DNA of 4,359 bases from a virus (lineage: Duplodnaviria > Heunggongvirae > Uroviricota > Caudoviricetes): IMG/VR virus record IMGVR_UViG_2541047758_000009. One strand, written 5' to 3'. The notes below the pieces were generated by a model. That model saw nothing but the letters and a program-made list of their open reading frames with translations. It was not told where the DNA came from and ran no database searches. The position numbers and the translations under genes are program-made. This document shows positions 1,006-4,359 of this stretch, one piece after another. Numbering within the stretch: position 1 is the stretch's first letter; every line of letters begins with the position of its first letter.

Positions 1006-1295
1006 TACCAGCTCCTTTTGTCGTTCAGTTTCTTAAATTCATCAGCGCAATAGCTGGCGATTTCTGTCGTTAATTTTGTCAGTTCATCCACGGATGAAAT
1101 TTGCTTATGAAATACAGCGCGTTTAACAAGTAAATTAACCACATCAGACAGGAGATTTAATTTATCCGCATAAATGGCTATAGTTGATTCCACCATATCC
1201 CCAGTGTTTTTATCGCGTTTAATATCAGCTAGCGACAAATCACCATTTTTCATGACTGAAATCTTCAGCCAGTTATTAAGCAATATATTTTTCAT
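1005..1295 (-). CDS. Hypothetical protein, 96 aa, low GC, unrecognised family
   Basis: ORF track 1005..1295. ATG at 1295..1293 overlaps the stop of the upstream ORF as ATGA, so it is translationally coupled inside the operon. Hand-counted GC is about 36% against about 50% for flanking genes. Predicted helical and fairly acidic; no hydrophobic segment long enough to span a membrane and no motif I can name. Confidence 0.6.
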   Translation of the reverse strand: MKNILLNNWLKISVMKNGDLSLADIKRDKNTGDMVESTIAIYADKLNLLSDVVNLLVKRAVFHKQISSVDELTKLTTEIASYCADEFKKLNDKRSW

Positions 1296-1537
1296 TCGCT
1301 ATATGCTCTCTCCGCAGAATCAATCATTTCCCGGCCATTATCGGTAATACAGAAACCTTCTCTTGATTTGGTCACAAGCCCCCATTTCCCCATTGCTATA
1401 AATGCTTTTTCCACACGACTAGGACAGGAGCGGAAGACATCGCTTGAAGGATGTAGTGGAGTCTTGTCATCTAATTTTTTAAGTAATGAAAGTTGATAAT
1501 CTGTTAAGCGTTTCCTGAACCATTTTGTATTTGTCAT
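1292..1537 (-). CDS. Hypothetical protein, 81 aa, low GC, unrecognised family
   Basis: ORF track gives 1292..1543 with a TTG start. I prefer the first ATG at 1537..1535, which is preceded by AGGAAA with a 7-nt spacer. Product starts MTNTKWFRKRLTDYQLSLLKKL...; the N-terminus is basic. Hand-counted GC is about 40%. Stop TGA at 1292..1294 overlaps the next start. Confidence 0.6.
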   Translation of the reverse strand: MTNTKWFRKRLTDYQLSLLKKLDDKTPLHPSSDVFRSCPSRVEKAFIAMGKWGLVTKSREGFCITDNGREMIDSAERAYSE

Positions 1538-1551
1538 CTCCAACTTTCCTG

Positions 1552-2505: not shown

Positions 2506-2877
2506 TTAAGCCGCACGGCCATGTCTTGATTTGCTGTAACTAATGCGATTTTTCCAGTCATGCCATTCTGTCGGAGCTTCATCAACCAGTTGGGCTGCGT
2601 ACTTGTCCCACTCACGGCGATTAATCCATAATTCAGCTTTCCCTCTTGGTTTTAATGGGTCTGTCATGTAGAAGGCTGGCAGCTTTCCTGCTTTAGCCAT
2701 TTCAGCCACCGCGCGTGGTGTCTTACCGATGTAAAGAGCAAAACCCTCTTTCGACAGCAAATCTGATGGGCGCTCTGAAATCTGAATGCTTTTACGTTTG
2801 GCTTCATTTTCGAAACTTGCCTCATCGCTAGTTGGACAAGAAATTTCTACATTTGTCGTCACTTTGCTATCCTCCAT
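2506..2877 (-). CDS. cox: Cox-like excisionase / early-promoter regulator, 123 aa from ATG or 118 aa from the alternative GTG at 2862
   Basis: ORF track 2506..2877. The segment EGFALYIGKTPRAVAEMAKAGKLPAFYMTDPLKPRGKAELWINRREW resembles the P2 Cox DNA-binding core as I recall it. It is the first gene of the leftward operon and divergent from C, as in P2. The ATG at 2877 has no SD; a GTG at 2862..2860 lies 7 nt downstream of GGAGGA and is an equally plausible start. The conserved core is preceded by about 40 residues that P2 Cox (91 aa) lacks. Confidence 0.75.
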   Translation of the reverse strand: MEDSKVTTNVEISCPTSDEASFENEAKRKSIQISERPSDLLSKEGFALYIGKTPRAVAEMAKAGKLPAFYMTDPLKPRGKAELWINRREWDKYAAQLVDEAPTEWHDWKNRISYSKSRHGRAA

Positions 2878-2970
2878 AAGATTTGCGATTCACCAACTGG
2901 AGCCATCTAGAGCCTTTTTGAGTGAATCGCAAATTGCCAAGTAACAATATAATTGGAGATTAGCAAAATT
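2878..2970. promoter_or_regulatory. Divergent immunity switch region between cox and C, expected to hold the early and lysogenic promoters and the operator sites
   Basis: 93-bp intergenic spacer between divergent regulatory genes. It contains a perfect 13-bp inverted repeat, a central TCTAGA palindrome (2906..2911) and an AT-rich block with TATAAT at 2948..2953. TTGCGA, a -35-like hexamer, sits in each repeat arm pointing inward, consistent with face-to-face promoters. Exact promoter positions cannot be fixed from sequence alone. Confidence 0.5.
2881..2934. repeat. Perfect 13-bp inverted repeat, ATTTGCGATTCAC (2881..2893) and GTGAATCGCAAAT (2922..2934), separated by 28 bp
   Basis: Read directly from the sequence: the two arms are exact reverse complements. 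They are the only copies of this 13-mer in the window. Candidate operator pair or RNA stem. Confidence 0.9.
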
Positions 2971-3270
2971 ATGTCAAGTGAACAAAGTGAAAAACTAAAG
3001 CTCATCCGTGAATCCGAACGCCTTAAAACTAAGGAACTTGCTGAATTAATTGGAATTAATTACTACACATATCATGGATATGAATCAGGAAAATCAAAAA
3101 TGCCTATGGAAGCAGGTATGAAGCTGTTTAAGCATCCACGCTTTCGCAAGTATCGTGACTGGTTCATGTTTGATGAAACAGATCCAGCAGCTGGACAAAT
3201 AGCCCCGGCTCTCGCACACATTGGGCAAGACTCAACAACCTTGCACCACTCAGACCAAAAGACTGGCTGA
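2971..3270 (+). CDS. C: Immunity repressor, P2 C-type, 99 aa, helix-turn-helix
   Basis: ORF track gives 2953..3270 from a TTG. I prefer the ATG at 2971, which gives 99 aa and has GGAG at 2955..2958. The N-terminal region has an Xre-like HTH (TKELAELIGINYYTYHGYESGK). The C-terminal AGQIAPALAHIGQDSTTLHHSDQKTG matches the P2 C repressor tail as I recall it. It lies directly upstream of and co-oriented with int, as in P2. Confidence 0.85.
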   Translation: MSSEQSEKLKLIRESERLKTKELAELIGINYYTYHGYESGKSKMPMEAGMKLFKHPRFRKYRDWFMFDETDPAAGQIAPALAHIGQDSTTLHHSDQKTG

Positions 3271-3363: not shown

Positions 3364-4359
3364 ATGTCTATTAAAAAGCTCGATGATGGTCGTTATGAAG
3401 TGGACGTCAGACCGCAGGGTGCAGATGGAAAACGTATCAGGCGGAAATTTAAAACTAAAGGTGAAGCTCAAGCATTCGAACGTCATGTCCTGGTTAACTA
3501 CCACAACAAAGAGTGGTTGGAGAAGCCGGCCGACCGCCGAACTCTTACAGAGTTGTTAGGCAGATGGTGGATATATCACGGAAAATCACATGAGCGTGGA
3601 GATATTGAACGAGGGCGTTTGACGACAATAATCGCCAAATTTGCCGAGATGGGAGTGTCCAGGGCGGACCAGCTAACAAAGAAAACGATAACTGATTATC
3701 GCGTTGTAATGATGAACGATGGCCTAAAACCAGCCAGCGTAAATCGGCATCTGGCAATAATGAGCGGGATGTTCACCAAGTTAATTGACGCCGGTGAATA
3801 TCACTCTCACAACCCGTTCCGTGAGGTTAAGCGGTTACGTGAAGCTGTTACGGAAATGGCTTTTTTGTCCAGTGAAGAGATTACGCGGCTGTTATCCATG
3901 CTTGATGGTGATGAGTTAAATGCAACTCTGGTCTGCCTTTCTACTGGTGGACGCTGGAGTGAAGTGTCTAATTTGAAAGCTGAACACATCATTAACCAGA
4001 TGGTTACGTTTATGAAAACTAAAAACGGAAAGCGCAGGACAATTCCCGTTTCGCAGGACCTGATTAAACGGATCAAGACCAAAAATTCAGGCAGGCTTTT
4101 TAATGCCAGTTACTACAAAGTGCGCAACGCTCTCAGGGAAGTAAAACCCGATTTACCTGACGGACAGGCAGTGCATGTTTTGAGGCATACATTTGCCACA
4201 CATTTTATAATGAATGGAGGTAACATAATCACATTGCAGCGCATCCTGGGTCATTCTAACATTCAGCAAACTATGACCTACGCACACTTTGCACCGGATT
4301 TCTTACAAGATGCTGTGACTCTTAACCCGGTGTCAAGAATGTCCATAATGCGTCCATAA
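3364..4359 (+). CDS. int: Tyrosine site-specific integrase, P2 Int-like, 331 aa, complete
   Basis: ORF track 3364..4359. GGAGG lies 5 nt upstream of the ATG. The N-terminus MSIKKLDDGRYEVDVRPQGADGKRIRRKFKTKGEAQAFE is typical of P2-family integrases. The C-terminal catalytic signature is present: LSTGGRWSE (Arg), HVLRHTFATH (His-x-x-Arg ... His) and TMTYAHFAP (nucleophilic Tyr). Stop TAA occupies 4357..4359, the last bases of the window. Confidence 0.95.
   Translation: MSIKKLDDGRYEVDVRPQGADGKRIRRKFKTKGEAQAFERHVLVNYHNKEWLEKPADRRTLTELLGRWWIYHGKSHERGDIERGRLTTIIAKFAEMGVSRADQLTKKTITDYRVVMMNDGLKPASVNRHLAIMSGMFTKLIDAGEYHSHNPFREVKRLREAVTEMAFLSSEEITRLLSMLDGDELNATLVCLSTGGRWSEVSNLKAEHIINQMVTFMKTKNGKRRTIPVSQDLIKRIKTKNSGRLFNASYYKVRNALREVKPDLPDGQAVHVLRHTFATHFIMNGGNIITLQRILGHSNIQQTMTYAHFAPDFLQDAVTLNPVSRMSIMRP

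Follow-up and report, generated by a model that had tools for sequence, protein, structure and literature searches.

An inverted repeat around candidate Cox boxes in the switch region of a P2-like prophage: a possible stem-loop in the switch transcripts

Organization of the switch region

The window, meaning the whole stretch of DNA analyzed (4,359 nucleotides; IMG/VR record IMGVR_UViG_2541047758_000009), is the int–C/cox–B region of a Peduovirus (P2-like) prophage (Table 1). The original prediction had placed the cox/C switch of a P2-like phage here, and this was borne out by the Cox-family protein (PF10743), the homolog of P2 C and the position of int in the gene order. Between 2400 and 3400 the window is 99% identical to the Peduovirus phages P24E6b, D8, 12W, 11W, pro483 and vB_YpM_46. 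A 161-bp segment carrying the switch was found at 93.8% identity or higher in 143 of 5,426 complete E. coli genomes, with no identical copies. The locus is an ordinary switch of the P2 type, with an immunity class other than that of P2; its one unexplained structural feature is a perfect inverted repeat between cox and C.

Table 1. Features of the switch region (positions in the window)
Feature	Position	Strand	Sequence	Details
cox (PF10743)	2506..2862	-		118 aa with GTG 2862 start; Shine-Dalgarno GGAGGA 2873-2868
Left arm of inverted repeat	2881..2893		ATTTGCGATTCAC	3' half of stem on early transcript
Predicted stem-loop, early (Pe to cox) leader	2881..2934	-		13-bp stem, 28-nt partly structured loop
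Three candidate Cox boxes, 10-bp phase	2897..2926	+	CTGGAGCCAT, CTAGAGCCTT, TTTGAGTGAA	Starts 2897, 2907, 2917
Right arm of inverted repeat	2922..2934		GTGAATCGCAAAT	Overlaps 3' end of Cox box 3
Candidate C operator half-site O2	2942..2950	+	TAACAATAT	19 bp from O1; straddles Pe -10
Predicted early promoter Pe	2949..2977	-		-35 TTGACA 2977-2972, 17-bp spacer, -10 AATTAT 2954-2949
Candidate C operator half-site O1	2961..2969	+	TAGCAAAAT	P2 O1 position, between Pe -35 and -10
C immunity repressor, 99 aa, HTH	2971..3270	+		ORF and alignment to P2 C
Integrase, tyrosine type	3364..4359	+		Downstream of C in lysogenic operon; its stop codon ends the window

The C repressor (WP_001389238.1) gave weak Pfam matches to HTH_19 and HTH_3. 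It could be aligned end to end with P2 C, with about 51% identity as counted by hand and a common C-terminal GQIAPALAH...QKTG, and this level of identity places it in a different immunity class. Immunity classes I–VII were reportedly defined by Karlsson (2006).

The cox product (WP_000390230.1) matched PF10743 (Phage_Cox) with an E value of 3e-29 and 101 bits against a cut-off of 27.5, and in phages D8, 12W and 11W the homologous protein carries a Cox annotation. Beyond cox, the list of open reading frames and Pfam matches revealed homologs of orf78, B and orf80–83; orf78 and B are of the P2 type, and no cII-like gene was found. Translation of cox probably starts at GTG 2862 and not at the annotated ATG 2877, as judged from alignment with a sister type. 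The GTG lies 7 nt past GGAGGA and aligns with the ATG of sister immunity types, while the ATG used in RefSeq and GenBank annotations (123 aa) has no Shine-Dalgarno sequence.

Cox consists of a P2-like winged-helix core and an N-terminal extension. In this group (the window and the related types L043–L116) the extension is 30–45 aa long; it is missing from the Cox proteins of P2 and WPhi. In the window it is encoded by 2740-2862 on the minus strand; its variable, acidic tail leads into a conserved basic/beta motif, K(R/K)K-x-[IV]-x-[IL]-[SA]-E-x-P-[SG]-[DN]-LLSKEGF.

Some further features of the region were observed. An 83-aa open reading frame without a Pfam match (1292-1543, minus strand) sits between the homologs of orf80 (DUF2732) and orf81 (DUF5405); these are adjacent in P2, WPhi and D8, and the frame looks like an inserted extra gene. 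Positions 2844-2876 and 2954-2986 form a 33-nt imperfect inverted repeat (73%), so that cox and C have ribosome-binding and start regions that mirror each other (GGAGGATAGCAAA-GTG and GGAGATTAGCAAAATTATG). The motif TAGCAAA upstream of cox is kept in nearly all switch types, whatever their C type.

Geometry of the inverted repeat

Both reading of the sequence and a repeat finder gave two arms of 13 nt each, 100% complementary and separated by a spacer of 28 nt. Among all perfect inverted repeats in the window with spacers of up to 100 nt, this pair was the longest; 30 shuffles of the window gave maxima of 8–11 bp. When the 78-nt intergenic segment was subjected to dinucleotide shuffling, 13 bp was reached in 0 of 300 shuffles (p = 0.003). 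The perfect 13-bp repeat with a 28-bp core that had been predicted is thus real, at exactly the predicted coordinates and beyond all shuffles. The palindrome TCTAGA was likewise found at 2906-2911; it is centered on 2908.5 and the repeat on 2907.5, an offset of 1 bp. The left arm contains TTGCGA at 2883-2888, and its complement lies at 2927-2932 in the right arm.

With up to three mismatches allowed, the only further copy of an arm in the window and on the attP side of phage D8 was a distant three-mismatch match at window position 881. Rfam 15 gave no match up to E = 1 on either strand of the region 2700-3100. A reading as a rho-independent terminator was rejected because the terminator scan gave no result at 2881-2934, the loop is long (28 nt) and neither arm is followed by a T-run. 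A likeness of the arms to a CRP site (TGTGA-N6-TCACA) or to a PurR box was also dropped, the order of the half-sites and their spacing being wrong.

Position of the promoters

A consensus scan of 2700-3100 returned Pe as the sole promoter-like site, with 10 of 12 consensus matches. Its -35 hexamer overlaps the start codon of C, in the window as in P2. When P2 (NC_001895) was scanned in the same way, the annotated Pe was recovered exactly and the annotated weak Pc was missed. By its hexamers, Pe would lie outside the repeat, with the early transcript predicted to start near 2942. Since Pe is to the right of the repeat, the predicted early transcript would carry both arms in its cox leader (about +9 to +62), the right arm occupying about +9..+21 and the left arm about +50..+62.

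The TTGCGA hexamers, which face inward, had been proposed as -35 elements of face-to-face early and lysogenic promoters. For the early promoter this proposal was not supported, given that Pe is predicted at 2977-2949, is homologous to the annotated P2 Pe and leaves the right arm in the leader. For Pc the case is less one-sided. By the geometry of P2, the Pc -35 element maps to about 2880-2888 (18–23 nt from the cox start), where the left arm has TTTGCG/TTGCGA, and related switch types often have a TTG motif there. Yet TCTAGA and TAGATG, the hexamers at 17 bp from the two TTGCGA copies, lack the key A2 and T6, the right arm is free to vary in relatives, and other types keep a repeat whose arms have no TTG-type hexamer. 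We consider it very unlikely that the hexamers are the -35 elements of both promoters.

No consensus-grade Pc was detected in 2700-3100 by the scan, which also misses the annotated P2 Pc, and consensus matching combined with conservation across about 20 switch types yielded no convincing hexamer pair. Two weak candidates were noted, TTGCGA(2883)-17-TCTAGA and TCTACA(2846)-16-TATCCT(2868). If the second of these (2846-2873) is taken as Pc, the left arm would begin with the first transcribed base.

Candidate Cox boxes in the core

On the basis of its sequence motifs, the 28-bp core between the arms is a predicted Cox operator. Related switch types have a semi-conserved core made up of three 10-bp units with the consensus YTRGAGCC. 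A weight matrix was built from 21 units taken solely from other immunity types, and it ranked the units starting at 2897, 2917 and 2907 among the top six matches in the window. The published P2 cox-box is TTAAA(G/C)NC(A/C) with a spacing of 10–11 bp (PMC3936717), and the 10-bp unit resembles the P2 box. TCTAGA straddles the junction of boxes 1 and 2. Its reading as a central palindrome was not supported: it belongs to candidate Cox box 2, and the palindrome is not kept in related switch types. The arms were also considered as extra inverted Cox boxes, a reading that was rejected because their weight-matrix scores were too low.

In phage D8, the top matches of the same matrix include three phased units directly past the int stop codon. 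These Cox-box-like units (CCAGAGTTAA, CTAGAGCCAA and TTGAAGCGAT; D8 3462-3491) lie just outside the right end of the window. Their sequence and position suggest that they are likely the attP Cox site of this phage group; P2 has an annotated attP Cox site at the matching position.

The arms as protein-binding sites

A collection of 24 switch types was gathered from GTDB genomes and IMG/VR; a pattern scan of metagenomes gave mostly chance matches, and only matches with full switch context were kept. In P2 C, the specificity positions are residues 31, 35, 36 and 41 (PMC2995052). The C recognition helix INYYTYHGYESGK is identical in the window and in types L083, L089 and L102, and their arms are unrelated: ATTTGCGATTCAC in the window, ATTTGCCGAACAC in L083, a TCCAGA-type arm in L089 and a TGTCTTT-type arm in L102. 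The same was seen among phages sharing the Cox winged-helix domain (the window, L043, L102, L105, L114 and L116), the arms of which are unrelated as well. As the arms differ completely under the same C helix or the same Cox domain, they are unlikely to be operator half-sites. An HTH-dimer palindromic operator of the lambda/P22 style, with half-sites about 10 bp apart, was not found in the repeat; the arm centers are 41 bp apart and the arms are not conserved with the protein.

The statement in the original prediction that P2 C operators are direct repeats proved correct (PMC2995052, PMC1904268), and direct-repeat binding has been found for all described C proteins of the P2 C family (PMC2995052). 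An operator search that recovered the known operators of P2 (repeats 22 bp apart) and WPhi (34 bp apart) gave the candidate pair O1/O2, in which 7 of 9 positions match in the window and 8 of 9 in the commonest relatives (O2 = TAGCAATAT). The pair is not kept in all phages sharing the C helix. Type L102, which has the same C helix with G28E in the turn, carries a perfect 9-bp direct repeat, AAGACACAT, with copies 21 bp apart at -50 and -29 relative to the C start. One copy is the right arm of the inverted repeat of L102 and an inverted copy is the left arm, giving a three-copy layout.

The repeat might still act as DNA, as a symmetric protein site whose arms are secondary C sites or outer Cox contacts. 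With C bound, the right arm (Pe +9..+21) would be a roadblock and the left arm, over the Pc -35, would serve autorepression; with Cox bound, the arms would be outer inverted contacts bounding a Cox filament. Of the right arm, the outer half (TCGCAAATT, 2927-2935) agrees with the sequence at the O1 position in 7 of 9 bases at a distance of 34 bp, which is the spacing of the WPhi operator, and Cox box 3 is overlapped by the right arm. P2 Cox protects at least 70 bp and its box orientation differs between targets (PMC3936717), and at high concentration P2 C is reported to act as a repressor of Pc (PMC3448106). Against this, besides the unrelated arms under the same proteins and the direct-repeat binding of described C proteins, most relatives carry TCACAAATT, which matches O1 in only 6 of 9 bases, and the left arm is poor as a Cox box on either strand. 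The 41 bp between arm centers is far past a single HTH-dimer operator. Across 23 types, the O1-position sequence did not match its own arm region better than those of other types (mean 6.26 vs 6.02; median rank-p 0.72). With neither a Cox-box score nor covariation with O1, the proposal that the arms are half-sites for C or Cox was not upheld, and we regard a DNA site of either kind as rather improbable.

Conservation and covariation of the pairing

The repeat was compared in 53 loci of the same switch type. All 13 pairs are formed in 6 of them, 12 in 24 loci (G2929A) and 11 in 13 loci, which have T2923C besides G2929A; the rest form 10–11. The perfect form is therefore found in 11% of relatives. 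The outgroups L080 and L081 have G at 2929, indicating that the window keeps the older state. Among close relatives, no part of the switch is more polymorphic than the right arm, which varies at 2923, 2924, 2925, 2928 and 2929. With the first bases of the predicted Pe transcript added, the most polymorphic stretch runs from 2923 to 2946 and also varies at 2936, 2942, 2944 and 2946. In near-identical relatives there is hardly any variation in the left arm and the Cox boxes. A perfect stem in only 6 of 53 loci, together with the variability of the right arm, argues that any constraint on pairing is loose.

Some of the changes are compensated. The pair C2886-G2929 has become C.A in most relatives and T-A in the group of L010, L017 and L034, and G2887-C2928 is A-T in L080/L081. 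Among nine haplotypes, 92% of cells pair and two pairs are changed on both sides; the covariation score was reached by 17 of 500 shuffles. In the commonest haplotypes, all positions that are not Watson-Crick are G.U on the Pe-strand RNA, and their stem was calculated at -20.9, -20.5 and -17.7 kcal/mol on the Pe strand vs -16.6, -12.7 and -8.5 kcal/mol on the other strand. In an overall tally, the strand bias of G.U pairs was not significant, with about 5–6 events for the Pe strand and about 5 for the other strand (L141, two OU784746-type variants and two P2 variants).

A second instance of covariation was found in the P2 class (P2, at 1933-1958, and types L265, L217 and L230), where a hairpin of 8–9 bp lies between the annotated Pc -10 and O2. 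Its arms beside O2 change from TTTAGTGC/GCACTAAA to TTTGATGTT/AACATCAAA in L265 with three compensated pairs, and C and Cox of L265 are still P2-type despite the changed arms. The covariation score of this class was reached by 0 of 500 shuffles. The start site expected from the annotated Pc -10 coincides with the beginning of the hairpin.

Of the 24 switch types collected, six have a perfect repeat that is individually significant (Fisher p 9e-5); the mean fold z over types was -1.6 and -1.9 on the two strands. Many of the 24 types reach no more than 5–7 bp in their best perfect repeat, whose position varies. Pairing recurs among related phages and the paired sequence does not.

These data also bear on whether the repeat has any function of its own. 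It could have arisen by chance or as a template-switching quasi-palindrome in a hypervariable, recombination-prone segment. The rarity of the perfect form fits such an origin, as do the 7 of 12 variable non-coding positions that fall within the arms and the 18 of 24 types in which the best perfect repeat is not individually significant. On the other side, the 13-bp perfect repeat exceeds all shuffles, compensated pairs occur in two independent classes, and self-complementarity is enriched over types by both the Fisher test and the mean z (about -1.6 to -1.9). A repeat without function appears unlikely to us on balance.

A possible stem-loop in the switch transcripts

It had also been suggested that the arms could pair into a 13-bp stem on a transcript, and folding calculations for the leader bore this out. 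The 83-nt leader gave -25.9 kcal/mol (z -3.2) for the minus strand and -25.4 kcal/mol (z -4.1) for the plus strand. On the Pe leader, the complement of the Cox boxes is enclosed by the stem, and 7 nt separate the end of the stem from the cox Shine-Dalgarno sequence downstream. Because pairing is maintained independently of sequence and falls in a stretch transcribed from Pe, nucleic-acid structure is indicated, with an RNA stem-loop as its most likely form. The repeat is probably structural, though loosely constrained. The earlier promoter and operator readings are largely unsupported, and the stem is the best of the options. Judged from sequence comparison, an RNA stem-loop in the switch transcripts is our tentative interpretation, to which we give slightly less than even confidence.

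According to this model, the arms would be the two halves of a transcribed stem that encloses the Cox operator between the convergent promoters, and the element would act as RNA on the switch transcripts and not as a protein-binding palindrome. Its likely role would be to set the stability or the translation of the leader. Alternatively, it may keep self-folded a stretch that is complementary to the opposing Pc transcript. With a Pc start near 2880, as expected for the candidate -10 TATCCT at 2868-2873, the stem would cap the 5' end of the C-int mRNA, a role that would parallel the position of the shorter P2-class hairpin relative to the annotated P2 Pc -10. With a loop of 28 nt, the hairpin is a modest one.

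The P2 switch is the textbook case of convergent promoters under two repressors, and to our knowledge it has so far been described purely by protein–DNA contacts. In the literature searched, neither a description of a hairpin in the Pe–Pc region nor a mention of the P2-class hairpin was found. A more speculative idea, for which the chances seem modest, is that P2-type switches (P2, WPhi, the class of the window and others) share an unremarked covarying stem-loop in the doubly transcribed stretch, next to or around the Cox operator, that adds an RNA-level layer to the lysis/lysogeny decision. Such an element might cap and stabilize a weakly expressed C-int mRNA, tune the translation of cox, or block sense–antisense pairing of the Pe and Pc leaders.

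A functional stem would amount to additional control at the RNA level, shared by many immunity classes. If the stem has no function, the result is a cleaner map of a common E. coli prophage switch (143/5,426 complete genomes). This map shows where Pe and the Cox boxes are predicted to lie, corrects the start of cox and adds a candidate direct-repeat operator.

Comparison with known systems

According to Emory, Bouvet and Belasco (1992), 5' stem-loops reportedly stabilize bacterial mRNAs such as that with the ompA leader. In common with the ompA-type leader, the window has a predicted stable leader hairpin shortly before a ribosome-binding site, and the hairpin of the P2 class begins at the start site expected from the annotated Pc -10. 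The difference is that the stem of the window begins about 9 nt from the predicted 5' end of the Pe transcript, which leaves about 8 nucleotides unpaired, too far for the classical effect of a 5'-terminal stabilizer.

Phage 186 is a P2-like phage with convergent promoters and inverted repeats in its switch region (PMC1904263, PMC1904268). Its pR–pL switch is built on a two-domain CI of about 190 aa with inverted-repeat operators, together with cII and Apl, whereas the window has a 99-aa P2-type C and no cII-like gene. A 186-type switch was rejected for the window on the size of the repressor (99 aa), on the presence of orf78/B instead of cII and on arms that vary independently of the repressor helix.

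The closest parallel in layout is P2 itself (NC_001895). Both have the order int-C and then cox-orf78-B in a divergent layout with convergent promoters, a Pe whose -35 TTGACA overlaps the start of C and is spaced 17 bp from the -10 element, an HTH C protein of about 99 aa and a PF10743 Cox. Both also have Cox boxes, candidate ones in the window, that are phased at 10 bp and placed between Pe and cox, with another set next to int/attP, seen for the phage group of the window in D8 (PMC3936717 for P2), and P2 also has a short inverted repeat beside O2 in the region where the transcripts overlap. The window departs from P2 in its C protein, only about 51% identical, and in a Cox with an N-terminal extension of about 30–40 aa. 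The best box reading in the window, YTRGAGCC, runs toward C, and that of P2, TTAAAGNCA, runs the opposite way. The repeat of the window (13 bp, 28-bp spacer) brackets the boxes, while that of P2 (8 bp, 10-bp spacer) lies beside them. The window has no perfect 8-bp direct-repeat operator, its best candidate pair matching at 7/9 (8/9 in relatives) with 19-bp spacing.

In WPhi (AY135739), the arm and box sequences are unrelated to those of the window, Cox is short (90 aa) and the C proteins have clearly diverged. The C operator of WPhi is the direct repeat GTCACCAATA, present twice, 34 bp apart, flanking the Pe -10. WPhi Cox is reported to recognize 12-nt repeats (PMC5009727), and we take the direct repeat between Pe and Pc to be the repeat described there. 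Around it, WPhi has a perfect 9-bp inverted repeat, CCAGTCCCT/AGGGACTGG, with a 23-bp spacer, the same layout as in the window.
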